Assembly: GCA_963555755.3 (NCBI GenBank)
Contig: OY820905.2
Coordinates: forward strand, 1,280,001 to 1,344,000
DNA: 64,000 bases
Source: Nitrospirales bacterium
GTDB lineage: Bacteria; Nitrospirota; Nitrospiria; Nitrospirales; UBA8639
Direction of reading: 5' to 3'
A program made the position numbers and the translations under genes. The notes under the pieces are model-generated. The model saw only the letters and a program-made list of their open reading frames with translations, ran no database searches and was not told the origin of the DNA. Positions 322-57,832 of the stretch are shown piece by piece (the first letter of the stretch is position 1; each line of letters starts with the position of its first letter).

Positions 322-673
322 GGAGCGTGTCCCAGATTAGACAGATCTACTGCAGGTGCGCTGGATGTGGCCAGATCTTCCGATCCTTTTCGGGGAATGT
401 TGAAAAAGGCCCCCAGCTGCGTTCTCTGTAGACGTAAAGCGTGAAGCGTGAAGCGTGATACGTGAAGCAAAAGAGTCGTTTTGACTTTTACCTTCTTGCT
501 TCCTTACTCATCACGCATTACGCGTCACCCATAACGATTTAGGCCTTGCTGGATGGCCTTTTTGAACATTCCCCGTTTTCGTTAAATAGGCACCACTATT
601 CGCCTCAAACGATCGAAACATCTGACTCAAACCAGCACCCCCTCGCAACGATCCCTAATCTCGGACAGGCTCC
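322..673. mobile_element. Composite MITE with IS1182-type ends, copy 1
   Basis: Ends GGAGCGTGTCCCAGATTAG ... CTAATCTCGGACAGGCTCC resemble the ends of the IS at 55228-56891; second copy at 4950-5359. Confidence 0.75.
392..574. repeat. Family C element (GGGGAATGTTGAAAAAG TIR) nested in the MITE and carrying a heptamer hairpin
   Basis: GGGGAATGTTGAAAAAGGCC ... GGCCTTTTTGAACATTCCCC with internal CGTGAAG/CGTGATA heptamers. Confidence 0.75.
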
Positions 674-706
674 TCGCAAAATAAAAAACTGTCTCATCAC
701 CACTAA

Positions 707-864
707 GGGTTCGGGCAAGAATAACTTCACCTGTTTGGGTGCTGAGACACCTGTCTGGCAAGGCGCGAGGACTGCGCATACTCCTCGGTATGGAAAGGAC
801 GAGCAACGCCGCCAGACGGGATGGATCGACGCCCAAACAGGGGAAGTTATTTTTGCGCGAACCC
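707..864. mobile_element. Family A MITE with TAA target duplication
   Basis: TAA-GGGTTCGGGCAAGAATAACTTC ... GAAGTTATTTTTGCGCGAACCC-TAA; near-identical copy at 23231-23387. Confidence 0.85.
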
Positions 865-1108
865 TAAGGTGACCACGATTTTTTGCATCTCACCATGCAC
901 ACCAATATCTTTCACGGACTGTTGTGAGCCAGCTGCCGTTTCTAGGTTCAATAAAACCCCACCTTCAGATATATGTCATCTTCATTCAGGTTCATCCGCC
1001 CCTCCCTTAAGACTCTGTTCTAACTGTCCGAAAATAAAGAGGAAAACATGAATATCGGCCGTAGCAATCTCTTACGTCTTCAGGTTGTGCACAGTAAACA
1101 CGTGACTC

Positions 1109-2722
1109 ATGAGTATGCCATCAACAACAGTTAGCCACGGACTTCCTCCGCGAATTGAAGAATTGCTCTCCACAACAGGAGAGGACCTCCCAATCCTTCG
1201 TCGATCGTGCCAAAGTATACTTCATTGCACGGACAACGACAGCTCAAGTGCCAATGATGTCAGCGAAGTCATCATGCGCGATCAAGGACTCATGACCAAA
1301 GTCATCAAATTGGCCAACAGCGTTCTCTATACCACCCTGACCCCCACCACAACCGCATTTCAAGCGGTGAGGATCATCGGATTCGACGAGATCCGAGCCA
1401 TTACCATGAGTGCGGAATTGGTTGAACAAGCCGATGAACGAGGGGGGAGTTCCAACGAACTCAAACGGCTCCTCGCCCAAGCCTTAGTCGCCGCGACAGC
1501 CGCGGTGGAACTTGGCGAAGCCTGCCGATTTCAGAAAAATGGCAATCTCTTTACCAACACCATGCTCTACACATTGGGTGATCTGGTGCTCGCCCACTAT
1601 GTCCCTGACATCTACCATCGATTGGACGTTGCCCGCCACACAGATCCGACAACCGTGGCCTCACTGGAAACAGAACTACTTGGTATGCCCTTGAAAGGCC
1701 TGGCCAGCATGATTGCCAAGGAGTGGGGATTACCAGAAAACATTACCAAAGTCATTCAAGCCACGCCGCATCTCGATGGAAAAATATGGGCGCATCAGCA
1801 GGATAAACTGGTCGGGATTGTCTTTGCTGCAAATGAATTGGGACGGTGTGTCTTATCCCCACCCACGGCATTCAATCAATCCACCATGCGGAAACTCATT
1901 GAGAACATTCCCAAAGCCCTTACGATCCCACCCCGCACCATGAAGACGATTCTGCTCCACACGTTTACAAGAGTGGTTCAATTTGCCGACACCGTGAATA
2001 TTGAACGAAAATTCTTTTTGCCCAATCCGCAATGGGCGACCTTGCCAGCACCAAATCCTTATCAGGGATTGATGACAGAAATAGCCAAAGCGGCCACTGC
2101 GTTGAAAAAGGAAGAACCTAAAATACACTTGGCAGCGATGAATCATGAAGACGAGTCGGACCTGCTGTCGTCCCCTCCATCACCCGAAGAACCGGTACCG
2201 AGGGAATCTGATGTATTTTTCTGGTTGCAAGAGTTTAGTCTGCAAGCACTCTCCACATCTGATGCCAATCAAATCCTGAAGCTCGGAGCGGCAGGGTTGC
2301 ACAAAGCAGGACAGTTCGAACGCGTTGTGATGACTCTTCTCTCACCGGAGACCGGCATGCTTGAACCTCGCATAGGGCACGGCCCACAGGTTCAGGACCT
2401 GTTACCGCTCTTCCGGTGCCCCGCAAAAGGGTATCATTTGTTAGCAGTGGCCTGTAATCGGTATGAGCCTATGAAGGTGGACAATTTTCAAACCGAAGTG
2501 CAAATGGGGAGAATTCCACTAGAGTTTCTCAAACAATGGGGAGACACCACCTGCTTATTCGGCCCCATATTTGCTAAAGCCAAACCCGTCGGAGTCATCA
2601 TCGCTGATCGTGGGGTCACCAATACCCCCATCACCGACCACGACTACTCAATCTTCATGATGGTTCTCGCCCAAATCAACATGAACCTCACTCGCCTCGC
2701 CACCGCACATCCCTCTAACTGA
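1109..2722 (+). CDS. HDOD domain signalling protein with C-terminal GAF-like domain
   Basis: DLPILRR...IMRDQGLMTKVIKLANS...AVRIIG and EWGLPENI (HDOD); PIFAKAKPVGVIIADR (GAF-like). Confidence 0.85.
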   Translation: MSMPSTTVSHGLPPRIEELLSTTGEDLPILRRSCQSILHCTDNDSSSANDVSEVIMRDQGLMTKVIKLANSVLYTTLTPTTTAFQAVRIIGFDEIRAITMSAELVEQADERGGSSNELKRLLAQALVAATAAVELGEACRFQKNGNLFTNTMLYTLGDLVLAHYVPDIYHRLDVARHTDPTTVASLETELLGMPLKGLASMIAKEWGLPENITKVIQATPHLDGKIWAHQQDKLVGIVFAANELGRCVLSPPTAFNQSTMRKLIENIPKALTIPPRTMKTILLHTFTRVVQFADTVNIERKFFLPNPQWATLPAPNPYQGLMTEIAKAATALKKEEPKIHLAAMNHEDESDLLSSPPSPEEPVPRESDVFFWLQEFSLQALSTSDANQILKLGAAGLHKAGQFERVVMTLLSPETGMLEPRIGHGPQVQDLLPLFRCPAKGYHLLAVACNRYEPMKVDNFQTEVQMGRIPLEFLKQWGDTTCLFGPIFAKAKPVGVIIADRGVTNTPITDHDYSIFMMVLAQINMNLTRLATAHPSN

Positions 2723-2775
2723 GTAACCATTCCTCAACAGGGAAAAATGACCTCTTTGGCAACCCATGCAACTAA

Positions 2776-2933
2776 GGGCTCGCGTAAAAATAACTTCCAC
2801 TGTTTGGCCATCGATCCATCCCGTCTGGCGGCATCGCTCATCGCTTCCATACTCCCGGTATGCGCACTCTTCGCTCCTTGGCTCGCTCCAAAATCACCTC
2901 GGCCAATGGTGCCGGTTATTTCGTGATGGACCC
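2776..2933. mobile_element. Chimeric MITE: family A left end, family B right end
   Basis: TAA-GGGCTCGCGTAAAAATAACTTC on the left; CCGGTTATTTCGTGATGGACCC-TTA on the right, which matches 33053-33315. Confidence 0.75.
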
Positions 2934-3386
2934 TTACCGCATCTGATTGGTATTCGGGACGTACTCATCTACTCGATCGATAAACCATAGCCCTTCCTCT
3001 CCCTTCACAAGGGAATAGAGTTCATCTTTGACGGCAGATCCCATCCAGGACGACACCGGCACACGAAGAATGACTCGCGCCTCATTTCCTTGAATGTCTT
3101 CGTACAGGATCCGACCTTGCCCATATTTTAAGCGTAGCCCTCGAAGAATGGGGTCCTGGGCATCAATCCAATCTTGCCTCGGGATGCCTTGACGAAAGTT
3201 CAATGTGGTCATATTGGCAGCCCGATCCAAATTATCCGGATACACGGTGATCCATAACTGCACAACGTCTCCAGGCGTTAACGACGGCGACTGAGCTAGA
3301 AGTTGCCAAGGGAAACCGAGGAGGATGAGAAGGCTGACGCACCCACCCCATTTCGTGCAGCAATCAACCATAGACAGGATCTTCAT
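2934..3386 (-). CDS. Exported hypothetical protein (possibly NTF2-like)
   Basis: Signal-like segment ending LLA-Q; C-terminal YSLVKGEEGLWFIDRV typical of NTF2-like folds; start uncertain. Confidence 0.6.
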   Translation of the reverse strand: MKILSMVDCCTKWGGCVSLLILLGFPWQLLAQSPSLTPGDVVQLWITVYPDNLDRAANMTTLNFRQGIPRQDWIDAQDPILRGLRLKYGQGRILYEDIQGNEARVILRVPVSSWMGSAVKDELYSLVKGEEGLWFIDRVDEYVPNTNQMR

Positions 3387-3663
3387 GAGGAATCGCTCCT
3401 TTGCCACATCAATTTCTAGTGATACCCTAACACCGCTTGTCGGTGAAAACAAAAATCGCCTTGGATTGGAATACGGAGCATGTTAGGCTTCCACATCAAA
3501 GAGACACCGTGAGGACACGCCACGCAACTTGAACGGACAGATTCGTCGGGAGAAAGAATCCATGTCCAGTTTCAACTCGACCGACATTCCTTGACCGACT
3601 CCTTTTCTGAACAGTATAGTCGTATAAGTATTGCATAGGATTTTATCTCATTCTGTTCTTCTT

Positions 3664-3993
3664 ATGGCCACTCTCGAAGGAAAAAAGCTCGGGCTACTTC
3701 TCTCCACCCCCCCCACGCATCCCAACGCAGAAACGGTGGCACAATTAAGCAAAGCTGCTCAGCATGCCAAGGTTCAAGTCTATTTGTATTTGATTGATGA
3801 AGGCGTGAAAAATCTGGAAAATCCCACCATTCGAGATCTTACGGATTCAGGTGTCAAATTGAGTGTCTGTGCCTATGGATGCCAACAACACAAGGTTTCA
3901 ACCGATGGGTATGGTCCAGATGTAACATTTTGCGGGTTGGTGGTTCTATCGCAAATCGTGACTGGCTGCGATCAGTTTGTCGCCTTCAATTAG
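3664..3993 (+). CDS. DsrE/DsrF-like sulfur-relay family protein
   Basis: VYLYLIDEGV, VCAYGC, CDQFVAF; upstream TTGACC-N18-TATAGT at 3591-3620. Confidence 0.8.
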   Translation: MATLEGKKLGLLLSTPPTHPNAETVAQLSKAAQHAKVQVYLYLIDEGVKNLENPTIRDLTDSGVKLSVCAYGCQQHKVSTDGYGPDVTFCGLVVLSQIVTGCDQFVAFN

Positions 3994-4228
3994 TCGTTCC
4001 GTTTTTCCACTCAGAGGTCTGAAAGACGTGAAGGATCTGCCCCCGCTTGATTATTCGACGTTTTTCACAGTTTAAGGTTTTCGAATCGGTGCACTTTTTT
4101 TTTCATCACCCCACATTCCTTATTCGGCAAACTCAAAAACTAGCCTAGAAAAAATGTCAGGCGACCTTGCAAGACCTTTTCGGGAACGGCCTCAACAATA
4201 GGAAACATTTGATCTGATCAGACTCGAT

Positions 4229-4921
4229 TTACGCAGGTCTGCTTCGTGGGCGGCCACGGGGGAGTGGAGCAATACGACGATCAATCTTCCGAGCTAGGCG
4301 GGCTTTAAACCGCTCACTTCCTAAGACCCAGGCCTTGTTCGTCGCCTCACGAATCGCGTCCAGGGTTTCCCCACTCAACTTGCGCCGAAACAATTCCCGA
4401 TACGCCTTCTGCCGCTCCGCTGCTGTTCGCCCCAGTCGTTGATATAAGGCATGGGGCGTCAACCATGGCTCAGCTTTGCCCTCCGCCTGGAAGTGATAAC
4501 TCGACCACAGATACTCTCGCGGATGCCTCACCATCTCCGCCCTCACGGGATTGAGTTCAATATACCGGCAACAGGCGAGAAGGTAGGCTTCACTGTCAAT
4601 GAGGGTTGCCCGATACCGGCCTTCCCATAATGTTCCGGTCCGCTGATAGGTCGTATTCACGTACTGAACATACCGCCGGCCCAGCGATTGAAACATCTTT
4701 GGCAGGCTGTAGGGCTGTTCAGGAGTCAGAAGGATATGCACATGGTTGGTCATGAGTACATAGGCGTGCAGGGTACAACCGTGGCGGCGAGCCGCCTCGC
4801 CAAGCCAATCAAGGTAGATGCGATAATCGGCCTTGTTAAAGAACAGGGCATCTCGATTATTTCCACGTTGAATCACGTGCAACGGATATCCGGGCACAAA
4901 AAAACGAGGTAAGCGCGCCAT
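4229..4921 (-). CDS. RAYT-like HUH (Y1) transposase, IS200/IS605 superfamily
   Basis: MARLPR..HVIQRGNNR, YVLMTNHVHILL (HUH), LWEGRY, YIELNPVRA; GGAGG RBS. Confidence 0.9.
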   Translation of the reverse strand: MARLPRFFVPGYPLHVIQRGNNRDALFFNKADYRIYLDWLGEAARRHGCTLHAYVLMTNHVHILLTPEQPYSLPKMFQSLGRRYVQYVNTTYQRTGTLWEGRYRATLIDSEAYLLACCRYIELNPVRAEMVRHPREYLWSSYHFQAEGKAEPWLTPHALYQRLGRTAAERQKAYRELFRRKLSGETLDAIREATNKAWVLGSERFKARLARKIDRRIAPLPRGRPRSRPA

Positions 4922-4949
4922 CACACCCTCCTTTTCTCATAAATTCATA

Positions 4950-5359
4950 GGAGCCTGTCCCAGATTAGACGAATCTACTGCGGATGTGCTGGATGTGGCC
5001 AGATCTTCCGATCCTTTTCGGGGAATGTTGAAAGAGGCTGCCAGCCTTCGCCCAGGCTACGGCAGACAAGCCAGCCGCGTTCCCAGCCTCCGCCGAGCCT
5101 CCTTCGCCGAAGTGGCTACGAAGGCTGAAAGCGGTTTCGCGCAGGCAGGTCGGGCTTTGGGTGTGCTCACGTACTCCGTGTACGCTCCGCGCGCCCAAAG
5201 CCCTGCGGCCTTGCTGGACGACCCCCCGCCTCCGCGAGGGCATGCTTTTTGAACAGTCCCCCTTTTCGTTGCATAGTCCCACTATTCGCCTTAAATGATC
5301 GAAACATCTGACACAAACCAGCACATCCTCGTGACGATCGCTAATCTCGGACAGCCTCC
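4950..5359. mobile_element. Composite MITE with IS1182-type ends, copy 2
   Basis: GGAGCCTGTCCCAGATTAG ... CTAATCTCGGACAGCCTCC; contains a family C element (5020-5261) that itself contains a CCTTCGCCGAAGTGGCTACGAAGG REP. Confidence 0.8.
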
Positions 5360-5482
5360 TCGCGAGAGTCGAAAGATAACACAAAGCCAGATTAAAATCG
5401 AGTCTGACCCCATTATTATAATTGGGAACGCAGCTGGTGGCCCCTTCGGTGATACTGAGGACCTGCTTTTTCAACAGCTCTC

Positions 5483-13565: not shown

Positions 13566-13672
13566 CCTTTTGTCATTTCAACCCTTGAGAGAAATCTCCC
13601 CTCTTTTCACATCAGCCAAGCCTAGGCCTCACGGATGAGGAGATTTCTCTCAAGGGTCGAAATGACAAAAGG
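13566..13672. repeat. REPIN-like inverted repeat (family G)
   Basis: CCTTTTGTCATTTCAACCCTTGAGAGAAATCTCC ... GGAGATTTCTCTCAAGGGTCGAAATGACAAAAGG; related copies near 28969 and 51903. Confidence 0.75.
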
Positions 13673-13905: not shown

Positions 13906-14110
13906 CTGTAGTCTCCCCTCGTTCACACATTCACATTTTTGGCACATGGCTCGCAGACCCCATTTCCGGGCACGGTATTGTATGGCCTAGTAACATTATA
14001 CCCAGAGCGGAAGATTCCGCGAAGCCCCAAGTTTGACGGTCTCACAGAATTTTGATAGCGTTTTTTCCACATCTATCACCACCGGATACCCGGCTACCAA
14101 CACGCCACCC

Positions 14111-14863
14111 ATGTCTCCTAAGAATTTTCTTCGTTCCTTTCCTCTTTTCGCACCCCTTTCGGAATCTGATTACGATCTTCTCTTGACTGACATTCAGGAA
14201 ACACCCTATCAGAAAGGTGAATATATTTTCCGCGAAGGAGACCCGACTGAATGGTTCCATATCGTCAAGGAGGGCACGGTCAAGTGTGTGAAGTCCTCGC
14301 CGGATGGACGAGACATGACCTTAAAGATCTTAACACCGGGTGACCTTTTTTGTTGCGAAGCCTCGGTCTTTGAAGGTGCTGTACATCCGGGGTGTGCCAA
14401 GGTACTGGATGGCGCAACCATTCTCAAAATTCCCAAAAAACGATATTTGGAAATCCTTCGTCGAAACCCGGAAATGGCCATGGAAGTTATTCAATACCTG
14501 GGGGAGCGATTACGGGAAGCCCAAGATAACGCCAAATCCTTGGTCTTTCATCCGGCTGAGCAACGCATGGCTTCAATCCTGCTCTCTTTGGCCACAAAAG
14601 CAGGACAGCCCGATCAGGAAGGGATACGGCTCCAAGCACGGCTCACTCGTCGTGATCTTGCCGATATGGCTGGATTAACAGTTGAAACCGCAACACGCAT
14701 CATGGGACGATTCAAAGCAAAGAACATTGTCATTGGTAAGGCTAAAAAACTCATTATCTGCAACATGCAAGCGCTCAAAGCCCTGGCCAACCCGCCGGAA
14801 GAACCCAATGAGGAAGCTGGATGCAACCTCACCCTGCACCAGATCGATTATCAAAAAACATGA
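14111..14863 (+). CDS. Crp/Fnr family transcriptional regulator (DNR/HcpR-like)
   Basis: IFREGD...GTVK cNMP fold; LTRRDLADMAGLTVETATR HTH. Confidence 0.9.
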   Translation: MSPKNFLRSFPLFAPLSESDYDLLLTDIQETPYQKGEYIFREGDPTEWFHIVKEGTVKCVKSSPDGRDMTLKILTPGDLFCCEASVFEGAVHPGCAKVLDGATILKIPKKRYLEILRRNPEMAMEVIQYLGERLREAQDNAKSLVFHPAEQRMASILLSLATKAGQPDQEGIRLQARLTRRDLADMAGLTVETATRIMGRFKAKNIVIGKAKKLIICNMQALKALANPPEEPNEEAGCNLTLHQIDYQKT

Positions 14864-14901
14864 CTTAAGTCATGTTTTTAACTTTTGACTTCCCCTATAC
14901 T
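14854..14901 (+). promoter_or_regulatory. Crp/Fnr-type palindrome with class II promoter upstream of nirK
   Basis: Perfect 26-bp palindrome AAAAACATGACTTAAGTCATGTTTTT (14854-14879) and TATACT at 14896-14901. Confidence 0.65.
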
Positions 14902-14958
14902 CCCCAACATCTCGCCTTAATTTTTTTACACTGTCAGTGCGAAGAGAAGGAGCAGAGT

Positions 14959-15972
14959 ATGCAGTTGTCCTATAGTAAAGTTCGTTCGATTCTCATCATT
15001 GCCTCCCTACTATGTGTATTGCCGTTTTCGGTTTCGGCGAAGCAACAAACGATTCAGGCAACGTTGACCACCGCACCTCAGGTTCCTCCACCCACCTCAC
15101 GATCAACCCCGGCACGGGTCGTGGTCAATTTTGAAGCTCATGAATTCATTGGCGAATTAAGCTATGGAAAGCAATATACCTATTGGGGCTTTAACCACTC
15201 AGTCCCAGGCCCCATGATTCGTGTTCGTCAAAACGACACGGTGGAATTTCACCTGAAGAATCACAAAGACAACCGATTTCCTCATAATATTGATCTCCAC
15301 GCGGTCAATGGGCCGGGAGGCGGAGCCGGAGTCAATCTGGTGATACCAGGGAAAGAATCGGTTTTCTCGTTCAAAGTGTTAAACCCTGGACTGTTTATCT
15401 ACCACTGTGCCTCCCCGGTGCCCAGTATTCCCGCTCACATTGCCAATGGCATGTATGGAATGATTCTGGTGGAACCTGCTAGTGGTCTCCCCAAGGTCGA
15501 CCAAGAATATTACGTTCTACAAAGCGAGTTCTTTACCAAACCATCCAGCAAGGAAGGCCTGCTGGAACTTTCAATGGAAAAAGGCCTAGCCGAACAGCCC
15601 GATTTCGTGGTGTTTAACGGAAAGGATGGGGCATTGACCGGTGATGAAGTCCTGAAGGCTACTGCTGGGGAAACCGTTCGAATTTATTTTGGAAACATTG
15701 GTCCGAATAGCATTTCGTCGTTCCACATCATTGGTGAAATCTTCGATACGGTCTATGTCGAAGGGGCATTGGATGGGTTGGTAAACCGAAATGTCCAAAC
15801 CACGGTGGTCCCGTCGGCTGGTGCGACTATTGTCGAGTTTAAAGTTGATATTCCAGGCGATTATTTACTCGTCGACCACAGCATTTTCCGAGTCGCCAAA
15901 GGGGCGGTAGGCTTTTTATCCGTCACAGGCAAGGGAAACCCTGAGATTTTCCAAAGTATTCAGCGACCGTAA
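14959..15972 (+). CDS. nirK: Copper-containing nitrite reductase
   Basis: Signal peptide; HNIDLH, YHC, HIANGM, SFH, LVDH copper ligands; AAGGAG RBS. Confidence 0.95.
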   Translation: MQLSYSKVRSILIIASLLCVLPFSVSAKQQTIQATLTTAPQVPPPTSRSTPARVVVNFEAHEFIGELSYGKQYTYWGFNHSVPGPMIRVRQNDTVEFHLKNHKDNRFPHNIDLHAVNGPGGGAGVNLVIPGKESVFSFKVLNPGLFIYHCASPVPSIPAHIANGMYGMILVEPASGLPKVDQEYYVLQSEFFTKPSSKEGLLELSMEKGLAEQPDFVVFNGKDGALTGDEVLKATAGETVRIYFGNIGPNSISSFHIIGEIFDTVYVEGALDGLVNRNVQTTVVPSAGATIVEFKVDIPGDYLLVDHSIFRVAKGAVGFLSVTGKGNPEIFQSIQRP

Positions 15973-16045: not shown

Positions 16046-16166
16046 GGGGCTGTTGAAAAAGGCTGTCCAGCAAGGCCGCAGGGCCTTTGGCGCCCGCAGC
16101 GTACATGAAGTACGTGAGGACGACAAAGGCCCGAGAACGCAGCTGGCGGCCTTTTTCAACAGCCCC
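16046..16166. repeat. Family C element
   Basis: GGGGCTGTTGAAAAAGG ... CCTTTTTCAACAGCCCC; abuts the cupin stop codon. Confidence 0.85.
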
Positions 16167-17356: not shown

Positions 17357-17435
17357 GGGTTCGCGCAAGAATATCACTTCCTAATATTTGGGTGTCTCAG
17401 CACCCAAACAGGGGAAGTTATTCTCGCGCGAACTT
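17357..17435. mobile_element. Internally deleted family A MITE at the DsbA stop codon
   Basis: TAA-GGGTTCGCGCAAGAATA ... GGGGAAGTTATTCTCGCGCGAAC. Confidence 0.75.
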
Positions 17436-17571
17436 TAGCCCCGCATGTAATGAATTCCTAGCCAAACACGCCTCGACAACCCCCTAGCCAAGCCTGTTAT
17501 AATCCTAGCCAGCCTCATCTCAAGATGAGGTAGAAGCCCATCACCTTTTTTTGCCCCACTGGAGGAATCAT

Positions 17572-17901: not shown

Positions 17902-18521
17902 GGATCTTCTCCTAAGTGAGTGGGTAAATTTGGGCGAGTAATTTCCTGAAAGGCTTGCTGGAGAAGAGGTTGGTGGGTTTTTCTACCGTGGGAAAAGTGG
18001 CCAGGCGTTCTTGAAGCTTCACCCTGATCATCCCTCCCCTTTGTAAGAGGACCTGCCGGCGCACCGGAGCGCTTTCAGCCTTCGTAGTCACTTCGGCGAA
18101 GGCGGCTTGGTGAAGGCGTGGGCTAGGTGGGGTAGCGCCCGCGGCAAGGAGCGAGCCGCAGGCATGCTGAAAGCCTGGACCGGATTCGACACCAGGCTGC
18201 TGAGGTTCTAACGAATCTGGGTGGGGTGCGCGAAGAGCGATCTGAGCGGCTGTCGTGACCCTCTACCTCCCCTTCCCTCCTTAGGACCTGATAGAAAATA
18301 ACTTGAACAATTTCGCATCCAATCTTCGGGCCATCTTTGAACGGGCCTCAATCGAAAAACCCTCAACATAGCTGTGCTATGCCTCGGGTTTTTCTCAATC
18401 GTTCCGTCCAAATCCAACCCAAATCTTGGCGCGAAATTGTTCAAGTTATTTTCTCTCAGGTCCTTACAAAGGAGGGGAGTGAAAACCGCCAGAAGTCACC
18501 CACACGATTTGGAGAAGAGCC
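17902..18521. mobile_element. Nested element stack: outer TIR element > REPIN > inserted REP and MITE
   Basis: Outer ends GGATCTTCTCCTAAGTGAGTGGGT / ACCCACACGATTTGGAGAAGAGCC; inner CCCCTTTGTAAG REP pair. Confidence 0.65.
18284..18463. mobile_element. MITE with 33-bp TIR and TTA target duplication, inserted in a REP hairpin
   Basis: TTA-GGACCTGATAGAAAATAACTTGAACAATTTCGC ... GCGAAATTGTTCAAGTTATTTTCTCTCAGGTCC-TTA; removal restores CCCTCCTTACAAAGGAGGG. Confidence 0.85.
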
Positions 18522-23230: not shown

Positions 23231-23387
23231 GGGTTCGCGCAAGAATAACTTTCTCTGTTTGGGGGCTGAGACGCCTGTCTGGCAAGGCGCGAGGACTGCG
23301 CATACTCCTCGTATGGAAAGGACGAGCAACGCCGCCAGACGGGATGGATCGACGCCCAAACATGGGAAGTTATTTTTGCGCAAGCCC
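23231..23387. mobile_element. Family A MITE at a stop codon, TAA duplication
   Basis: Near-identical to 707-864; left TAA is the stop of 22232-23230. Confidence 0.85.
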
Positions 23388-27541: not shown

Positions 27542-27561
27542 TCATTCCAAATACGTTTCAT

Positions 27562-27732
27562 AAACTCGAAATCCGAATATCGAAATACGAAACAAATCTG
27601 AAATACAAAACTCGAATGTTCCAAACAGGTCATTTGGGATTGTTGCGGGTTTCGAGATTCGAGTTTCGAAATTGGTCTTCTTATTTGATCATTCGAATTT
27701 GTTTCGGATTTCGATATTCGAGCTTCGGATTT
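27562..27732. repeat. Heptamer inverted repeat (ATCGAAA/TTTCGAT type)
   Basis: CGAAATCCGAATATCGAAATACGAAACAAAT ... ATTTGTTTCGGATTTCGATATTCGAGCTTCG. Confidence 0.75.
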
Positions 27733-27835
27733 ACTCTATGGTTCCCCCGCCATCAGCTGAGAAACCGGAAGTTTATTGAAATAGCTACAACCAACATTTG
27801 AGTTTGCGATTATTGGCCGCTATGCTCTGGAACCT

Positions 27836-32833: not shown

Positions 32834-32902
32834 GGGTCCTGTTGAATATTGCACTCTAACAGCCAATAAAAGCTCCAAATCAGCCACGCATCGTCAGTGG
32901 GA

Positions 32903-33048
32903 GGGAATGTTCAAAAAAGCATGCCCTGAGTCTTTCCGAAGGGTCTATCCAGCAAGGCCGCAGCCATTTTGACGAGCGGAGCGTACTCACAGTACGTGAG
33001 CACGGCAAAATGGCGAGAACGCCGCTGGCGGCTTTTTTCAACATTCCC
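32903..33048. repeat. Family C element with small inserted REP
   Basis: GGGAATGTTCAAAAAAG ... CTTTTTTCAACATTCCC; internal CCCTGAGTCTTTCCGAAGGG. Confidence 0.8.
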
Positions 33049-33052
33049 ATAA

Positions 33053-33315
33053 GGGTCCGTCACGAAATAACCGGTACAATTGGGAAGCCCAGATTTGTGA
33101 TCGGGGCTAGGCGCGACGAGAGAGCAGAGCGGGGCTCTGTGACCGAGGAGCAACGCTGCCCCGTGCCAAAGATGGGCCTCCCCGGAGGGCCGAACGCTTT
33201 TGGGCTGCGCCGGCGTTGCTCAACGCTTCCATACTCCCGGTATGCGCACTCTTCGCTCCTTGGCTCGCCCTAAAATCATTTCGGCCAATTGTACCGGTTA
33301 TTTCGTGACAGATCC
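33053..33315. mobile_element. Family B MITE with TAA duplication
   Basis: TAA-GGGTCCGTCACGAAATAACCGGTACAATTGG ... CCAATTGTACCGGTTATTTCGTGACAGATCC-TAA. Confidence 0.85.
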
Positions 33316-37204: not shown

Positions 37205-37322
37205 AGGATGTTCAAAATGTTCGTCTAGCAAGGCTGCAGACCATTTGGCACGCGGAGCGTACGACAGTACGTGAGCATGACAAAGGGTCGAGAACGCAGC
37301 TAGCGGACCTTTTCAACATCCT
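37205..37322. repeat. Family C element inside the sulfur-carrier operon
   Basis: AGGATGTTCAAAA ... TTTTCAACATCCT. Confidence 0.8.
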
Positions 37323-38647: not shown

Positions 38648-38813
38648 CAATTTTTTCGAATATTCCGTCTTCCCCTGAATCTCCCCTAGAAATTACCTGC
38701 TAGACATCTTTTGCCAGGCTTGCAATAATATTTACGACATGGGCCTGTTGAATAATTCAAAATTTCTATAAGACCAATAGCATTTGATTAATTGATTTAA
38801 CCCTAAATAGCCA

Positions 38814-38936
38814 GGGGCTGTTCAAAAAGGCCCGTCCAGCAAGGCCGCAGGCGCTTTGGCGCGCGGAGCGTACTCATAGTACGTGAGCACGACAAAGGGC
38901 CGAGAACGCCGCTGGCGGACTTTTTCAACAGGCCCC
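38814..38936. repeat. Family C element
   Basis: GGGGCTGTTCAAAAAGG ... CTTTTTCAACAGGCCCC. Confidence 0.85.
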
Positions 38937-44102: not shown

Positions 44103-45541
44103 GAGGCAAGCCCACAGTTAGTTGAAATTCTCCACGGCTCCGAGGTTCATATTAGGCAACCTTCTTCATCGAGGTCTTCCCAATGTTTAACTCTTGTTGC
44201 AGTGCCTCACGCAAGCGTGGCAAGTGCCGATAGCCCTTGACTCTGCGGAGCCGTGGCTCGATATCCAGCAACGCCGCGGCCAACCACCGCTGCCGCTGAT
44301 TCGAGTTCGTCCAGCGATCCACCTTGGCACACCGCTCTTCCACCAAGGCATTGATGGATTCCAGACAATTCGTCGTTTTGAAGGACAGACCTACCAGAGC
44401 ACCCCCCCCCAGCCGATGCAACGTCAACGTGTCCTCCAGACCTTCCGCCAAACTCCGAGCCGCCGATTGGTTGCGGTCCTCCAGTTTCGTCTGCAGGTGC
44501 GTGAGTGCGGCTCTCGCTTCCGCATAGGTCGGGCGCTGATACGCCCGTTGAAGCCGGCGTCGCCACGTGGCCTGGTCGCCTTTCGGTACATGGCTGACGA
44601 CATTCTCCCGTTTGTGCCACTGGCACCGCTGCCCCAAGGCTGAGTGGCCAAAGACGTGGCGCACGGCCGCTCGCAGGCCTTTGCCCCCATCAATGATGAC
44701 CACCAACCCCTGGGAACTGGTGAGGCCGCGCTCCCCCAACTCCTGAAGAAAGGGCGTGAGGCCTTGCTCATTTTCCGTTCCCGTTTCCACAAACCCCAGG
44801 ACGTGTTTCTCGCCCGTGAGCGTGATCCCGATCGCCACGACCATCGTCATGTCGGCAACGGTCTTGCCATCGAGAAAGATGGCGACGATGTCTCGCTCAC
44901 GGCGGTCGCGTTCCTGCAGTCCCTTGAGTTGCTTGGCGCTGGCATCCGTAAAACTCCGCGACACCGTCGCGCTTGACAAGCCAATCGCCCCAGGGACTGC
45001 GGCCGCCGCCGCCTCATAGTTCCGGCAGGAAATCCCATACAGCACGCGTTTGAGCCGGACCTCATCCAGCTTACCTGTCCCACGGAGGTGGGGCAGGCGC
45101 TGTAAGGCCATTTCGCCACCCCCCACGTACTGAACGCGAGGAATCGGCAACGGATGCCGTTGCCCCGCCAGCCGGACATTCCCGGGATTACTCCCATGCC
45201 GGCGGCCAGGCAGCCGAGCCCCCTTCCGTTCATCCCGGACCCCGGCCACCGCACACACTTCGTCCTCTAAGAGCTCCTGAATCCGCATCAGATCCAAGGG
45301 GATGAGGGCCTGAATACATTCCACCTTGCTGTTCACATCGAAGGCCTCATACTGCTCGGGCCGAATCACCCGCACGGCCCCCAAGCGGCGCGTCTTCTTG
45401 CTTCTCGTTGTCGTTTTCGCAATACTGCGCATGAAGTGGCTCCTTTTTTTCTGTTGCTGAGATGTCGATTCTTCGTCGAACGCCATCTCACCACAGGTGG
45501 GGGAGCCGCTTCAAATTTCAACTAACATTAGCACACACTCC
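44103..45541 (-). mobile_element. IS256 family insertion sequence
   Basis: Sub-terminal inverted GTTAGTTGAAATT at both ends around the transposase; no clear TSD. Confidence 0.75.
44152..45432 (-). CDS. IS256 family (Mutator-like) DDE transposase
   Basis: IFLDG, IIDGGKGL, QRCQWH, TTNCLESIN. Confidence 0.88.
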   Translation of the reverse strand: MRSIAKTTTRSKKTRRLGAVRVIRPEQYEAFDVNSKVECIQALIPLDLMRIQELLEDEVCAVAGVRDERKGARLPGRRHGSNPGNVRLAGQRHPLPIPRVQYVGGGEMALQRLPHLRGTGKLDEVRLKRVLYGISCRNYEAAAAAVPGAIGLSSATVSRSFTDASAKQLKGLQERDRRERDIVAIFLDGKTVADMTMVVAIGITLTGEKHVLGFVETGTENEQGLTPFLQELGERGLTSSQGLVVIIDGGKGLRAAVRHVFGHSALGQRCQWHKRENVVSHVPKGDQATWRRRLQRAYQRPTYAEARAALTHLQTKLEDRNQSAARSLAEGLEDTLTLHRLGGGALVGLSFKTTNCLESINALVEERCAKVDRWTNSNQRQRWLAAALLDIEPRLRRVKGYRHLPRLREALQQELNIGKTSMKKVA

Positions 45542-45930: not shown

Positions 45931-45936
45931 TGAGCG

Positions 45937-51539: not shown

Positions 51540-51569
51540 TATTGTAATGTTTAAATGATTTTTTATCAA
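51540..51569 (-). promoter_or_regulatory. Sigma70 promoter of the porin-modABC operon with shared 14-bp motif
   Basis: Minus strand TTGATA-N17-TACAAT; TAAACATTACAATA identical to 53330-53343. Confidence 0.65.
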
Positions 51570-51902
51570 GTATACTTTACGTTATAGTTCCATCTATCCT
51601 CCTATTAGGTTTTGTGGACTCAAATTCAGTGGGCCTCTAACTCAGGCCAGAAGATACCCCTCCCCCCTGTCATTTCTGGAATAAATGCCAAATAGTGTTG
51701 GTTTTTTATCTTGGTTGGAGATACTCATACCATCGAAAATACGCATTAGGAGGCGTCTTCATGAGACTTTGGCGTGAGAGGCACCTGTCATCTTTCTCAT
51801 CACCGCATCCCTTTGTTAAACCCTTTAAACACAAAGATGCGTAACGTGTTGTCACCGAAGAACTTCCTTGTAACTTTCCCAACACTTTTTGGCATTTATT
51901 CC

Positions 51903-51970
51903 CATTTCGACCAAAGGGAGAATCCCGAGCAGGGATACCAAAGAGATTTCTCCCTTTGGTCGAAATGACA
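51903..51970. repeat. Family G REPIN
   Basis: CATTTCGACCAAAGGGAGAATC ... GATTTCTCCCTTTGGTCGAAATGAC. Confidence 0.7.
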
Positions 51971-52139
51971 AAGAACACGGAGAAATTCTGGCCACACAGA
52001 CTCAACTGCAAAACAAGGTTGCAATAAATGGAGTGTATCGGAAGAGGAATAATGGGAAAACGGAATTCTATGAACGAAGGGGTGAGGTGGTTGAACAGAG
52101 AAAATGATGATTTAAGACATTCGAGATTCAGATGCTATT

Positions 52140-53324: not shown

Positions 53325-53329
53325 GATAT

Positions 53330-53359
53330 TATTGTAATGTTTACTTGTCATTTATGCAA
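53330..53359 (-). promoter_or_regulatory. Promoter of the regulator, probably leaderless
   Basis: Minus strand TTGCAT-N17-TACAAT ending 6 nt before the ATG at 53324. Confidence 0.6.
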
Positions 53360-55227
53360 TTAAAAAATAATGTTAATCCTGATCAATACCCACCAACACC
53401 CCTCAGGTTGTTCAAGCGTCCGGCCTTGAAAAATATCGTTCCCGAATTCCCCTTGACCTCACATCGTCATTGTCATAAAAGAACACGCTGGACGTCCACC
53501 ATTCACTCACTCACGAGAAGAGGATTCCTGCATGGCAACCAAAACTTCTTCCACTATCGCCCGCCTCCCACAATGGAATTTAAAAAAATTGCTCGCGAAT
53601 CCGGAAAAAGACCTTGAAGGTATTTCTCAAACCCTCAACACAACGATCGCCTCGCTTGAAAAACTTCGCCCCTCGCTTCACAACAAGACTTCGCCAAAAT
53701 CTTTTGCGACCGGCCTTCAACTCACCGAAGACATCGCAGCGTTAAGTTCTCGCGTAGGTGCGTACTCACAACTGTGGTTCGCACAAAACACCACGAATCA
53801 GAAAGCCCGTGCGTTTGAGGCCAAGGTCAAGGATCGACTCGCACACTTTTCTAATCGCGTGGTCTTTTTTGATCTGTGGTGGCAGCAACTCCCTCATCAC
53901 ACATCACAGCAGCTCCTGACCAACACCGGATCCATGCGATACCACCTTGCCTCGTTACGCCGAATGAAGCCTCATACCCTGACAGAACCCGAAGAACGTA
54001 TCATCAATATTAAAAACACCACAGGTCGGTCGGCCATAGATTCCCTCTACGATGTACTGACCAATCGCCTGACCTTCACCTCTCCAGAGAAAGGTGCTCG
54101 CACGCCTTTGTCCCGCGAACAATTATCCGTGTTCTTTCGGCACCCTTCCGCCACCATGCGAAAGCGCGCCTATCAGGAACTGCTTCAGGTCTATTCGGGT
54201 CACGCTGACATCTTAGGCGAAATGTACAAGACGCTCGTGACGGATTGGAAAAATGAGGGCATTGATCTTCGGCACCACCCATCACCCGTGGCGGTGCGCA
54301 ATATTCACAACGACATTCCTAACAAGGCCGTAGAGACCCTTCTCGCCTGTTGCCGAAACAACCGCCACATTTTCCACGAATATTTCAGGCTGAAAGCCAA
54401 AATCTGCAAAATCAACAAACTGAGCCGCTATGACATTTACGCTCCAACCAAAAGCGCCAAGACATCCTATCCGTTTGACCAAGCCAAGAAGCTGGTGTTT
54501 AGCGCGTACGAACAATTCTCGCCCACCTTGGCCAAGTATGCGCAGCAGGTGTTTACTGATCGACATATTGATGCCAGCCCCACGCCAGGAAAAGCCGACG
54601 GGGCCTTTTGTTGCAGCGTACTGCCGAAACTCACACCATATGTGCTGCTGAATTACACCGGCGACGCCCGAGACGTCGCCACTCTCGCCCATGAACTTGG
54701 GCATGCCGTGCATGGCATGATGGCCCAACACCATTCCGTATTCACCTTCCATTCCACGTTGCCACTTGCCGAAACCGCATCCGTGTTTGGCGAACAATTG
54801 TTATCCCATGCACTCTTGCAAGAAGTCTCGAGCCCGCGAATGAAGCAACGGTTACTTCTTGGCCAACTCGATGATCTCTACGCGACCATCCTGCGCCAAG
54901 CCTATTTTGTTGAATTCGAAAATCAAGCCCATGAGCACATTACCCAAGGGGCCACCGTCAATGCCCTGGCCCACACATACCTGGGTCTACTGAAAGAACA
55001 ATTTGGCAGAGCCGTGACAGTCCCCGACGAGTTTCAGTGGGAGTGGATCACCATCCCGCACATCTATCGAAGTCCGTTCTATTGCTACGCCTATAGTTTT
55101 GGAAACCTGCTGGTGTTGGCGCTGTACCAACGGTACCAGGACGAAGGACAGTCGTTCATCCCTAAGTATTTGGATTTATTGAGTGGTGGTGGGTCGAAAA
55201 GCCCTCAGGACCTGCTCAAACCCCTAG

Positions 55228-56891
55228 GAGCCTGTCCGAGATAAGCCCTGCAATTTCTATGACCAGTATATATCACTAGCTATAAGTACTTGACATCGAC
55301 TCCAGGAGTTGGTACACTGCTCGCACCAATTTTCTCCCTTGGAGGTGCCTGAATGTGTGACCGCACGTTTCGTCCCTATGACCCGGAGCAACCCTTCCTG
55401 TTGCCCCCGACCTTGCAAGAGTGGCTGTCCGCGGAGCACTTGGTCTATTTTATCTCGGATCTGGTGGAGTCCCTTGAGCTGACGGCCATTCTGTCGTGGT
55501 ACGACAAGCCCACCCGCGGGACGGTGCCCTACCATCCTCAGATGCTGGTCAAGGTGCTGCTGTACGCCTATTGTATCGGGACCCCCTCCTCCCGGCAGAT
55601 CGCCCGCAAGCTGGAAGAGGACATCGGCTTTCGCGTGCTGGCGGCAAACAACACCCCCGACTTCCGCACGATTGCCGAGTTTCGCAAGCGGCATCTGACG
55701 GCGCTCACCGGGATTTTTGTCCAGGTGCTTCGGCTGTGTCGTCAGGCCGGGTTGGTGAAATTGGGCCATGTGGCGGTGGATGGCACCAAGGTCAAAGCCA
55801 ATGCGTCCAAACATAAGGCGATGAGCTACGAGCGGATGCAGGAGGAAGAGACGCGCTTACAGGCCGAGGTGGAGGCGTTGCTCGCCGGCGCGGAGGCGGC
55901 GGATGCCCGAGAGGATGCGACCTATGGCGCGGAGTGCCGGGGCGACGAACTGCCGCAGGAATTGGCGTTCCGCACCAGTCGCCTGGAGAAAATCCGAGCG
56001 GCCAAAGTGGCGTTGGAACAGGAGGCCCGGGACGCGGCGGTCGCCAAAGCGGAGGAGCGAGAAGGGCCCCCCACGAAGTCGTCCCCTGCAGCCCCTGCCG
56101 CGGGGCCGGGGCCGAAGGCGCAGAAGAATTTTACCGATCCCGAGAGTCGGATCATGCCCTCGTCCAGTGACAAGGGGAGCTTTGTGCAAGGCTACAATTG
56201 TCAGGCGGCGGTCGATGCCACGGCCCAGATTATTGTCGCCGCCGATGTCACCCAACAGACCAACGACAAACGGCAAGCGCAGCCGCTGCTGGAGCAGGTG
56301 ATCGCCAATACCACGCAGGTGCCGAAGACGGTGAGTCTGGATGCCGGGTATTTCAGTGAGGACAACGTGCAGGCCCTCAAAGAGTTGGGGACAGAGACCT
56401 TGATCCCCCCGGATCGCCAGACGCATCGAAGGCAGGCCCAGCCGCCCGCTGCCCGGGGGCGGATCCCGAAGGGCCTGTCCGTGGCCGACCGGATGCGGCG
56501 GACGTTGCGGACGAAACGGGGCCGCGCACGCTACGCGAAACGGAAAGTCATCGTGGAGCCGGTCTTTGGCCAGATCAAACAAGGGCGTGGGTTTCGCCAG
56601 TTTCTCCTGCGGGGCCTGCAGAAGGTCCAAGGTGAATGGGCGTTGATCTGCACGACCCACAACGTCCGAAAACTCTGGGCAGCCCTGGTGAAGTCTGACC
56701 GCAGCCTGGCGGCATTCGGAAAAGCATGGGCCACAGGATAACGCAGAGGGAAATCCACTCTCACAGGGAGCGCGAGGAAGCAAGATTACGGCAAAGGTCG
56801 ACAGAACCAGGCATGAAATGAGGTAACCAGCGAGTCATATGACGAAAAAAGCCTGGAACAGGTCCAGTTGCTCGCAATGCAGGACAGGCTC
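55228..56891 (+). mobile_element. IS1182 family insertion sequence with CTAG duplication
   Basis: CTAG-GAGCCTGTCC ... GGACAGGCTC-CTAG inserted in the palindrome ACCCCTAGGGGT. Confidence 0.92.
55353..56741 (+). CDS. IS1182 family transposase
   Basis: YHPQML, SSRQI, PDFRTI, AVDGTK, TDPESR, LDAGY, VEPVFG. Confidence 0.95.
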   Translation: MCDRTFRPYDPEQPFLLPPTLQEWLSAEHLVYFISDLVESLELTAILSWYDKPTRGTVPYHPQMLVKVLLYAYCIGTPSSRQIARKLEEDIGFRVLAANNTPDFRTIAEFRKRHLTALTGIFVQVLRLCRQAGLVKLGHVAVDGTKVKANASKHKAMSYERMQEEETRLQAEVEALLAGAEAADAREDATYGAECRGDELPQELAFRTSRLEKIRAAKVALEQEARDAAVAKAEEREGPPTKSSPAAPAAGPGPKAQKNFTDPESRIMPSSSDKGSFVQGYNCQAAVDATAQIIVAADVTQQTNDKRQAQPLLEQVIANTTQVPKTVSLDAGYFSEDNVQALKELGTETLIPPDRQTHRRQAQPPAARGRIPKGLSVADRMRRTLRTKRGRARYAKRKVIVEPVFGQIKQGRGFRQFLLRGLQKVQGEWALICTTHNVRKLWAALVKSDRSLAAFGKAWATG

Positions 56892-57033
56892 CTAGGGGTA
56901 GACATGTGTGCCGAGAAGTTTTGGCAGTCCGGGTTCGACCGGATTGAGACCATGGTGGGGGAGCTTGAGAACACCTTATCGTAAGTATGGCCTTAGTATC
57001 TGGCACCAAACTTGAATAGTCAAAACATCCTTG

Positions 57034-57199
57034 AACCTAAAAACGGCAGTTGGATCACAAAAGTCCGCGCAAGTTCTTGACGCGCCTGGCAAAATACAAA
57101 AAGTCTCATCACCACCAAGGTGAACACGACTTTTGGTATTTCACCATGCACGCCAATATCTAACACGTCTTTTTTGCGCCCAACTGCCATTTCTAGGTT
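57034..57199. mobile_element. TIR-bounded small element; empty-site counterpart of 676-948
   Basis: AACCTAAAAACGGCAGTTGG ... CCAACTGCCATTTCTAGGTT. Confidence 0.7.
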
Positions 57200-57290
57200 G
57201 ATTTAGAGGGTCAGTTACGTTAGCCTTGCCCGTTTGCTGCAGCGATTCGGAACAAAACCCAATAGTCATCAGTAACAGGGAGTCAGGTAT

Positions 57291-57530
57291 ATGGAAAGTG
57301 CGTACGTGTTAATCAACGTTCTTCCAGGACAAACCGCGAACGTCAAAAGACTGTTAGAAGAAATCGATGAAATCAAATTGATCGATGCATGCTGGGGCAA
57401 ACCCGACATCTTTGCACGCGTGGAAGTCGCGAGCCAAGAAGACCTCACCCAAATAGTCCTCACTCGCATTCATGCCATCGAAGGCGTATCCCAAACGGAT
57501 ACTCATCTGGTCTACACAATTCAGGAATAA
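57291..57530 (+). CDS. Lrp/AsnC ligand-binding (RAM) domain protein
   Basis: AYVLINV.PG ... WGKPDIFA ... IEGVSQTDT. Confidence 0.85.
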   Translation: MESAYVLINVLPGQTANVKRLLEEIDEIKLIDACWGKPDIFARVEVASQEDLTQIVLTRIHAIEGVSQTDTHLVYTIQE

Positions 57531-57642
57531 CTGGTAAGACGTGATGCATCATACGTGAAACGTGATGCGTACCAAAAACTCGACTTTACTCTTTACCCAT
57601 CACGCTTCACGGATCACGCTTTTCTGTTCATGTCTCTTTCAA

Positions 57643-57671
57643 GGGGCCGTTGAAAAATTTTCAACATTCCC
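57643..57671. repeat. Collapsed family C element (TIRs only)
   Basis: GGGGCCGTTGAAAAATTTTCAACATTCCC. Confidence 0.6.
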
Positions 57672-57710
57672 TCAATCTTAGATCTCATACACTAAAGACC
57701 AAGAGCAACA

Positions 57711-57832
57711 GGGGATGTTCAAAAAGGTGCGCTCAGCAAGGCCGCAGGCCCTTTGACGCGCGGAGCGTACTCATAGTACGTGAGCACGACAAAGGGCCGA
57801 GAACGCCGCTGACGCCCTTTTTCAACATTCCC
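57711..57832. repeat. Family C element at the cytochrome c stop codon
   Basis: GGGGATGTTCAAAAAGG ... CCTTTTTCAACATTCCC. Confidence 0.85.

Follow-up and report, generated by a model that had tools for sequence, protein, structure and literature searches.

The enterobacterial repeat ERIC, also called IRU or RU-1, is described from Enterobacterales and Vibrio as an intergenic unit forming one long hairpin, and the accessible text of these descriptions names no core shared with other elements (PMC2229807, PMC10969869, PMC2267715). In the available part of one of them, transposase mobilisation of ERIC has no experimental support (PMC2229807), and the accessible sections of reviews leave open how ERIC moves and why its centre is conserved. 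The window analysed here, a 64,000-nucleotide stretch of a Nitrospirales genome, carries gene-less elements that resemble ERIC in being intergenic single hairpins and in sharing both of its motifs, its 77-nt span and its inner hairpin. As far as those descriptions go, they differ from ERIC (127 bp, TA termini) in unit length (158-263 bp), in their ends, in their TWA or 5-bp target duplications and, for family C, in an extra outer left end.

All twelve coordinates named by a first-pass annotation of the window proved to be repeat elements (Table 1). Like MITEs, they are short (158-263 bp), non-coding, intergenic and multicopy, with 43-270 copies per family (C about 270, A 173, M 127, long B 43 in the genome). 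Several of these gene-less families hold, between different ends, a folded centre of 55-77 bases, hereafter the core. The common order proposed by the annotation was recovered in families C and A and in element 33053, as a GCAAGGC-like 5' motif, an inner TA-loop-TA hairpin and the 3' motif AACGC(C/A)GC, but family C reads CAAGGCC or CAAGGCT where CAAGG(C/A)G had been given. A strict core pattern matched 369 times in contig C1 and not once in the reversed genome. A core model trained without any enteric sequence and without this genome (R1) placed the named window elements at the top, strongly for C and A and weakly for B and M, and missed 2776. The related hairpin reported for the MITE at 18284 is indeed present, the family M inner hairpin ranking in the top 0.11% when set against 8,034 control hairpins, but the outer motifs are absent and the whole-core match is poor (Table 1). 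Other assignments had to be revised: 33053 belongs to family B but has two cores, 2776 is a B/A hybrid, and at 392 the hairpin is missing, its place taken by another repeat.

Table 1. Repeat elements and one transposase element in the window.
Feature	Position	Strand	Core or inner hairpin	E value	Other details
Family C shell	393..573	-			both outer motifs; central hairpin swapped for another repeat; within D element 322-673
Family A element	707..864	+	short core 758-812	3e-5 (model R1)	TAA duplicated both sides
B/A hybrid	2776..2933	-	core ~2828-2881	no match by model R1	left arm and second core of B type, fused at the 3' motif to an A-type right arm
Family C element	5021..5260	-	inner hairpin ~5168-5186	0.036	3' half interrupted by other small repeats; within D element 4950-5359
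Family C hairpin	16046..16166	+	core 16070-16143		left arm position 10 = G; outer end and duplication looked for, neither found
Family A derivative without core	17357..17436	+			
Family M element	18284..18463	-	related inner hairpin ~18365-18383	0.27	without outer motifs
Family A element	23231..23387	+	core 23282-23335	2e-5	TAA duplicated
Full family C unit	32835..33048	+	core 32952-33025		in order: outer left end 32835, 68-nt spacer, internal arm from 32903 (24-nt insert at ~32919-32942), core, right end; 5-bp duplication ATAAG
Family B element	33053..33315	+	two cores head to head, ~33106-33159 (+) and 33210-33263 (-)	0.005 and 0.64	
Family C hairpin	37205..37322	+	core 37228-37300		
Family C unit	38741..38935	+	core 38839-38912	2e-7	outer left end 38741, 73-nt spacer, internal arm 38814; no perfect 5-bp duplication
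IS1182-family element	55227..56892	+	no core		ORF 55353-56741; D-type ends; 377 bits vs cut-off 270
Family C unit	57643..57832	+	core 57736-57809		outer left end 57643, 68-nt spacer, internal arm 57711; no perfect 5-bp duplication

The stems of the core covary. Changes on both sides were found in 10 of 18 pairs, a count whose outer pairs were placed by hand following the anchored analysis; 93% of cells are paired, against 77.8% after shuffling, and the score of 0.38 falls to at most 0.083 when slid. RNAalifold alone, run on a MAFFT alignment, recovered the inner hairpin and nothing further out. Such covariation fits RNA and single-stranded DNA alike. Its mismatches are biased by strand (G.A 236 vs T.C 8; G.T 127 vs A.C 38). 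Across phyla, the stems turn over and the motifs and length stay constant, the long class measuring 73-79 nt, a range that the search pattern partly imposes.

This structure is not confined to one genome or one phylum. The core was found in about ten bacterial phyla, the wider scan comprising at least 125 loci, and the held-out model R1 retrieved six repeats of the ERIC type from E. coli K-12. Three variants of the inner hairpin occur among the E. coli copies, all of them also present across phyla and one nearly identical to that of family C (L246). These data support the conclusion that the conserved structured core is homologous to the centre of ERIC and extends far outside enterics, as the annotation had proposed from ERIC's likeness; covariation, alignment across families and matches to ERIC, on any of which it had said its idea could fail, all spoke for it. 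Our literature searches turned up no published account of this link across phyla. The Rfam scan gave no family match for the window elements. Elsewhere, V_AS5 (RF02818) overlaps an enteric copy (L205) at 45 bits, below its gathering score of 96, and sX9 (RF02228) partly overlaps two betaproteobacterial loci, below its gathering score of 44.

The ends tell a different story for each shell type, with target duplications of 3, 4 or 5 bp. The annotation overstated the case in calling the ends of A, B and M unrelated: all three are GG..AAATAAC-like, sit at the base of the hairpin as terminal inverted repeats, and lie in C-TNA-G sites with a 3-bp duplication (TWA). Among un-nested copies with TNA on both sides, the two triplets are the same in 59 of 73 cases for A and in 35 of 39 for M; correcting the flanks for palindromes was tried and set aside, complementary middle bases occurring in just 9 of the 73 A copies. 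In family C, what had been taken for the left terminal repeat at 32903, 38814 and 57711 proved to be an arm inside the element, the true left end usually lying 68-76 nt outside the hairpin. A 5-bp duplication was detected at this outer end in 37 of 60 long units (control 0.3), and at the hairpin base in 1 of 63 and 0 of 9. A relaxed test gave 48 of 177 copies (control 1-3), 47 of them 188-252 nt long, while the other 129 have no perfect 5-bp duplication. The left arm of the hairpin, which is not an insertion boundary, is an internal copy whose sequence follows that of the right end: 4.76 of its 5 unconstrained bases agree with the right end, versus 3.08 for the outer end (51 copies). The spacer is mostly 68 nt although its sequence varies. 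Of 135 outside loci, 22 have the same double-left-end layout (control 2-4), and visual inspection showed it in most of 30 loci of genome G168.

Cores and ends have been exchanged, in agreement with the borrowing of different ends put forward in the first-pass annotation. This genome contains two hybrids whose crossovers lie in the motifs, and near-identical cores occur inside different shells. Loci L117 and L188 have cores 93% alike and different ends; reciprocally, L119 and L225 have the same ends and cores only 50% alike. Identity of the cores correlates weakly with that of the ends (rho 0.24). Since raw end-identity counts (88/227, 41/218) are inflated by indels, we rely on the inspected pairs alone.

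The elements are mobile, as presence and absence at orthologous sites demonstrates: C37205 is present in two of 11 relatives and absent in nine, and the C unit at 38741 is absent in all six relatives spanning the site. In 168 family A copies, motif positions carry 18 private changes per 1000, versus 16 in the rest of the core, and shared changes per 1000 number 0 in motifs, 24 in the terminal inverted repeats and 30 in the arms. Motif mutations arise but none has spread, which suggests that the motifs are required for amplification and tells against the annotation's cargo being passive. In family C, private changes in the motifs are reduced by a factor of 2.3, a pattern compatible with selection acting on individual copies or with ascertainment. 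Orientation to replication is unbiased for C, A and B; M lies on the leading strand in 50 of 127 copies (p=0.02, uncorrected). Among viral contigs, about 11 of 74 pattern matches are convincing by eye and the remainder chance, a stricter pattern leaving one match, and in a plasmid search no record spans 80% of a C copy.

We searched this closed genome (G000) for an autonomous partner bearing the ends of A, B, M or C and found none, nor did a genome-wide repeat scan reveal a multi-copy transposase with the core. End pairs 600-3,500 bp apart yielded 13 candidates, of which the eight inspected were neighbouring copies or transposases inserted inside small elements, the latter belonging, as we take it from the look of their proteins, to IS630, IS1634, IS66 and IS110. 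Autonomous IS5/IS1182-like elements in genomes G168 and G170 have left ends resembling these shells; their right ends were not located. The IS1182-family element of the window encodes the kind of transposase that fits the shells, and is at most a candidate partner for A, B, C or M. In 151 genomes, PF05598 transposases do not track the core (genes vs core matches: 23 vs 1 in G143, 0 vs 45 in G064, 0 vs 54 in G144). No core-partner protein was found, and the likeness to PriA primosome sites of phiX174 and ColE1 came to nothing, the best R1 match (E 0.15) being located elsewhere than those sites.

Taken together, we favor, at a probability of about 0.45, a reading in which these gene-less elements combine different ends with one ERIC-homologous core, the ends likely being processed by DDE transposases in trans and the core likely being needed in cis to multiply, probably as single-stranded DNA. 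The transposases would cut and join the ends, while the core strand would fold back during replication or a copy-out step and rebuild a duplex right end on one strand. So folded, it may present two A-rich bulges around a 3-4-bp helix, together with the TA/TA hairpin, to a putative widely conserved protein, a host factor or a transposase, which would promote copying. We propose that, as such a copying step would be indifferent to end sequence, recombination in the motifs could shift the core between shells. Against this reading stand the missing autonomous partner, the PF05598 transposases that fail to track the core, the largely unbiased orientation to replication, the reduced private changes in family C motifs, the 129 C copies lacking a perfect 5-bp duplication and the capacity of template switching in palindromes to imitate covariation. 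A broader version, which we regard as doubtful, would make ERIC one branch of a pan-bacterial gene-less superfamily defined, independently of its ends, by a single-strand fold that a putative conserved host protein reads for copying; any DDE transposase with attached ends could amplify its members, and the internal arm of family C would serve to rebuild the duplex end on one strand.

Could the core instead be a host RNA, acting on transcript stability or processing as has been reported for Yersinia ERIC, retained by host selection and moved by ordinary transposases? RNA would accommodate the G.U-type and tandem G.A pairs and the A-rich bulges, the family C motifs do show fewer private changes, and ERIC effects on mRNA are, in the accessible text, orientation-dependent and linked to RNase E (PMC2229807). 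We nevertheless consider this unlikely: sense and antisense copies between co-oriented genes are even, with no bias relative to transcription (C 78/100, A 60/47, M 49/44, B 13/13), none of 16 four-base loops is GNRA or UNCG, family A motifs decay after insertion as fast as the rest of the core, close relatives do not retain the sites, and the neighbouring genes are arbitrary. With no Rfam family either, the RNA element of the annotation is not borne out, and the core acts more likely as DNA than as RNA, even though the data do not separate the two decisively. An RNA copy might also be an intermediate, reverse transcribed and inserted by a transposase. The one-strand fold and the many ORFs in the genome that presumably encode group II intron reverse transcriptases are compatible with such a route, but it is very unlikely, as the two C spacers scanned contain no promoter-like site, no reverse transcriptase was found among 140 neighbouring ORFs, and precise paired ends with family-specific duplications make an RNA step unnecessary.

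Two further readings dispense with a functional single strand. As a double-stranded binding or bending site, the core would let an architectural protein draw together the two ends of a very short element. The constant core length, the regular C spacer of varied sequence, the two motifs being imperfect direct repeats of each other, the IHF site that the available text reports in Correia elements (PMC2229807) and ungapped core-to-end distances peaking about one helical turn apart (22-25 nt in 44 of 84, 34-36 nt in 17 of 84) would fit. When the spacing was re-measured with gaps allowed, however, the noise was too great for periodicity to be seen, and compensatory stem changes, one-strand purine mismatches and the tracking by the internal arm would be left unexplained, making this quite unlikely. 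Alternatively, one old MITE lineage may have spread with a functionless core, kept palindromic by template switching while its ends drifted. An A-tract and an IS5/IS1182-like look are common to many shells, and the weak core-end correlation and the missing partner protein agree with this scenario. Template switching should have removed mismatches, yet AA bulges persist, as do tandem GA pairs and, in 116 of 132 C copies, a C.C mismatch; moreover, motifs are more constrained than terminal repeats in spreading lineages, and stems turn over across phyla when motifs and length do not. We therefore judge it highly improbable. Hardly plausible at all is a REP-like unit moved alone into empty shells by an HUH (RAYT) enzyme. 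The hairpin is strand-specific and the genome has 17 Y1-domain genes, one of which, at window positions 4229-4924, adjoins the C/D nest, but only 2 of the 17 are preceded by such an element within 400 nt, against a background of 573 in 4,024 genes, empty shells are rare, and none of the 140 ORFs scanned among the 150 nearest to loci L119-L198 (E 1e-12) is an HUH, integrase, transposase or other mobile-element gene.

If the favored reading is correct, many genome-specific 'palindromic repeat' families would turn out to be a single family, and mobile-DNA biology would gain a new part, an enhancer of mini-transposon copying that does not depend on the transposase. As a target the core is well defined: it measures 75 nt, has invariant positions, and comes with natural compensatory variants, with hybrids and with a layout that keeps pairing physically apart from transposase recognition, so that how ERIC moves and why its centre is conserved could be tested directly, including in E. 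coli's own ERIC copies. One branch of the family has already been listed: the central palindrome of a repeat of Geobacter and Desulfotalea matches, in reverse complement, the inner hairpin found at Geobacteraceae loci L159, L160 and L197. The available part of that listing reports it for those two alone, with no tie to ERIC, MITE ends or other phyla. As described in the accessible sections, REP and REPIN sequences with their RAYTs likewise form strand-asymmetric hairpins in hundreds of intergenic copies (PMC3184786, PMC3733652); unlike them, the elements studied here are not associated with Y1 genes and have target duplications and long terminal repeats. With bacterial MITEs such as Correia/NEMIS, RUP and BOX, as far as the available texts go, they share the lack of genes, terminal repeats, target duplications, mutual nesting and a presumed trans-acting transposase (PMC2229807, PMC3184786, PMC3049150). 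By contrast with MITE families, whose interiors are unrelated in those texts, one structured interior is kept here between end types and between phyla, under tighter constraint than the ends.

Judged by sequence, the core shared by several families of small gene-less elements (a folded centre of 55-77 bases with a 5' motif, an inner TA-loop-TA hairpin and a 3' motif) is genuine, occurs across phyla and shares homology with the centre of ERIC, the classic enterobacterial repeat. To follow it, we used a model, R1, trained on 67 aligned cores without any sequence from the host genome (G000) or from enterics. Its eleven best matches in the window were all named elements, in agreement with the proposal that families with different TIRs share one core: five C elements (E 2e-7 to 4e-6), two A elements (E 2-3e-5), the first and second cores of the B element at 33053 (E 0.005 and 0.64), the C element at 5020 (E 0.036) and the M element (E 0.27), while the hybrid at 2776 was not matched in the window. 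The same model returned six matches in E. coli K-12 (E 1e-7 to 0.047; 19 candidates), all ERIC-type by sequence, so that the expected hit on ERIC was obtained. These six repeats carry no ERIC label in the RefSeq annotation, and we class them as ERIC-type from the motif and from locus L246 (127 nt, TA termini), which fits the definition of ERIC in PMC2229807. The copy numbers published for E. coli are 19-30 (PMC2267715, PMC10969869), so R1 recovers only part of the E. coli ERICs.

A repeat was present at each window coordinate named by the first-pass annotation, some of whose descriptions had to be amended. The 5' motif, given for the three families as CAAGG(C/A)G, reads CAAGGCC in family C; the repeat at 392 exists, with its hairpin lost; the element at 33053 does have a B core, carrying two rather than one; and the repeat at 2776, assigned to B, is a B2/A hybrid. 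The related inner hairpin reported for the M element at 18284 scored above 99.9% of 8,034 control hairpins, and a C variant at C1:2370090 has an inner hairpin nearly identical to that of M; the inner hairpins of A and B are degenerate and did not pass the pairing filter of this test. In the genome (4.62 Mb, 51% GC, two contigs), blastn matches covering more than 60% of the query gave about 270 copies of C, 173 of A, 127 of M, 43 of long B and 113 of D, a family in which the C elements at 392 and 5020 are nested and whose hairpin centre could not be tied to the core. The pattern GCAAGGC-N35-75-AACGC(A/C)GC had 369 matches on contig C1, against 0 on the reversed sequence.

Features of the window and of contig C1
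Position	Feature	Observation
Window 322-673 and 4950-5359	Family D	Empty sites show a 2-bp TA overlap; ends resemble those of IS1182 at 55227; centre a short TA/TA hairpin
Window ~57027-57200 and around 677-948	Further multicopy host element	Ends AACCTAGAAAC; its fixed insertion sites for A, B, M and D yield 600-900 bp composites
Window 13566-13672, 27561-27733, 19811/46695/48899, 436-528, 5086-5133	Other REP-like hairpin families	Some have inserted into the centre of C or taken its place
Window 2776	B2/A hybrid	
Window 4229-4924 (-)	RAYT-like gene	Below NCBIfam cut-off
Window 14033-15972	Crp/Fnr regulator, then copper nitrite reductase	
Window ~32919-32942	24-nt insert in internal arm of C	Many C units have one
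Window 44152-45486	IS256 transposase	
Window 57643-57670	Outer left end of C plus immediate inverted copy	28-bp mini-palindrome
Window 58455-61832	Type I-C CRISPR array	46 repeats matching RF01322
Window 58811-58941, again at 59237-59367	Two duplicated spacers of the array	
Window 62314-63417	cas1	
C1:2157177, 2354440, 2406501, 342894	Gene at the 24-nt-insert position of C, presumably an IS110-like transposase	Units 1,422-1,428 bp; 5-bp duplication kept
C1:3566192 (-)	Lone element with yet another type of end, AGGTTGCTTC	C-like core inside
C1:4556511	B1/A hybrid	

Because the search pattern fixes both terminal motifs, covariation was counted only in columns outside it. Across 78 non-redundant cores, pairing far exceeded that of shuffles in the flanking stem, in the three in-motif pairs and in the inner hairpin, with compensatory swaps such as C-G/G-C/T-A. 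Among 67 aligned cores, a set in which kin cores are non-independent and outer pairs were placed by hand, 93.0% of cells were paired against 77.8% when shuffled, 10 of 18 pairs changed on both sides, and the covariation score was 0.38 against at most 0.083 for a slid alignment, as anticipated for a structured centre. Folded, the core forms one long hairpin whose stems vary and whose tip is TA-loop-TA; two A-rich bulges, one on each strand, flank a 3-4-bp helix. Non-Watson-Crick cells were skewed to one strand (G.A 236 vs T.C 8; G.T 127 vs A.C 38), GA/GA accounted for 88 of the 2x2 loops, and GNRA or UNCG tip loops were found in 0/16 four-base and 1/24 six-base loops.

The suggestion that the core reaches well beyond enterics also held. 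A GTDB scan with a tighter pattern yielded at least 125 loci, and the matches listed cover about ten phyla: Desulfobacterota, Pseudomonadota (including four enteric genera), Bacteroidota, Bacillota, Actinomycetota (Coriobacteriales), Acidobacteriota, NC10/Rokubacteria, Gemmatimonadota, Myxococcota and Nitrospirota, names that we assigned from record titles, mostly of MAGs. By appearance, L138, L213 and L238 are chance matches. The inner TA/TA hairpin, one arm of which is partly required by the search pattern, occurred in 135 of 145 distinct cores (the matches listed from GTDB plus 20 hand-picked phylum loci). Strict pattern matches were present in 93/151 same-phylum genomes, many with just 1-2, which is the control level (0-5); families f1, f2, f3, f5, f8 and f12 contain genomes clearly over it. 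Cores from a same-class genome (L103) and a Nitrospirae record (L227) are 93% alike. Tandem arrays were seen in Pantoea (L220; three ERIC-type copies, 128-nt period) and on a Rokubacteria contig (L147; two cores).

The ends around the core are of many kinds among the outside loci listed. Those of A, B and M, described earlier as unrelated, proved to have in common an end motif, GG..AAATAAC, and the site C-TNA-G. Empty sites within host repeats (32/130 copies of A, 18/45 of B, 13/75 of M) revealed a 3-bp overlap for all three, and among un-nested copies with TNA on each side, the two flanks were the same in 59/73 for A and 35/39 for M. Insertion at TWA is characteristic of one subgroup of IS5. 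By contrast, family C has a different end layout. Its 122-bp hairpin shows no duplication at its base (1/63 and 0/9); sequence in common lies upstream of the hairpin in 87/146 copies vs downstream in 23, and this upstream part starts with a second terminal repeat. From that repeat to the right end, a perfect 5-bp duplication was found in 37/60 (control 0.3), and a relaxed test gave 48/177 (control 1-3), of which 47 were 188-252 nt long. The spacer from this outer left end to the internal arm, the left arm of the hairpin, is mostly 68 nt. In 51 copies the right end is matched by the internal arm at 4.76 of 5 bases vs 3.08 of 5 for the true left end, yet in 116/132 copies position 10 of the internal arm still forms a C.C mismatch. 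The same layout passed the test in 22/135 outside loci among those listed (control 2-4) and was visible in most of 30 loci of another genome, G168. The fold-back is thus retained at a position other than the insertion boundary.

These elements have moved: at orthologous sites, the C element at 37205 is missing in 9/11 relatives and the unit at 38741 in 6/6. Orientation relative to transcription and replication is even, and neighbouring genes are arbitrary. In 168 copies of A, private changes per 1000 were 18.1 at motif positions vs 16.4 in the rest of the core, and shared changes 0 in motifs, 24 in TIRs and 30 in arms; in 256 copies of C, motifs had 8.4 private and 8.4 shared, and the rest of the core 19.7 and 98.8, all split by nearest neighbours rather than a tree and open to ascertainment because copies came from blastn. 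Most simply interpreted, damaged copies survive in place without spreading. Exchange of ends around the core, as first proposed, is evident in the two G000 hybrids, which cross over within the motifs; outside, L117 and L188 have different ends and cores 93% alike, and L119 and L225 like ends and cores 50% alike. Our main reading, to which we give a probability of about 0.45, is that the core, enclosed in shells recognised by transposases, would be a single-strand signal acting in cis for amplification.

No mobiliser for A, B, M or C was found in G000. Comparable ends are seen on an IS5/IS1182-like element of 572 aa in G168 (more than 20 copies, shell-like left end; best match IS1182, below cut-off), on IS5/IS1182-like elements with shell-like left ends in the genome G170 and, in G000, on a 516-aa element (C-like ends) and on the window's IS1182 (D-like ends). 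The core was absent from the flanks read of these IS elements, except that one disrupted copy in G168 is followed by a core, and PF05598 does not follow the core distribution across the phylum. A RAYT as mobiliser and a primosome site as the core's identity were both tested and gained no support. G000 holds 17 Y1 genes, many of them with a short upstream motif of their own, of the AAAGGGGTCA / GATAGGGTCAGG type and often tandem; by appearance, many multicopy ORFs there resemble group II intron reverse transcriptases and IS91-like transposases.

In a search covering few subscription journals, no paper was found linking the centre of ERIC to other MITE families or phyla. One branch of the core family, 24 Geobacter elements, is described in PMC2700814, where no such link is drawn. 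The repeat families tabulated in the supplements to two Geobacter papers may include more members. We conclude that the A, B, C and M elements are MITE-like and not ERICs.
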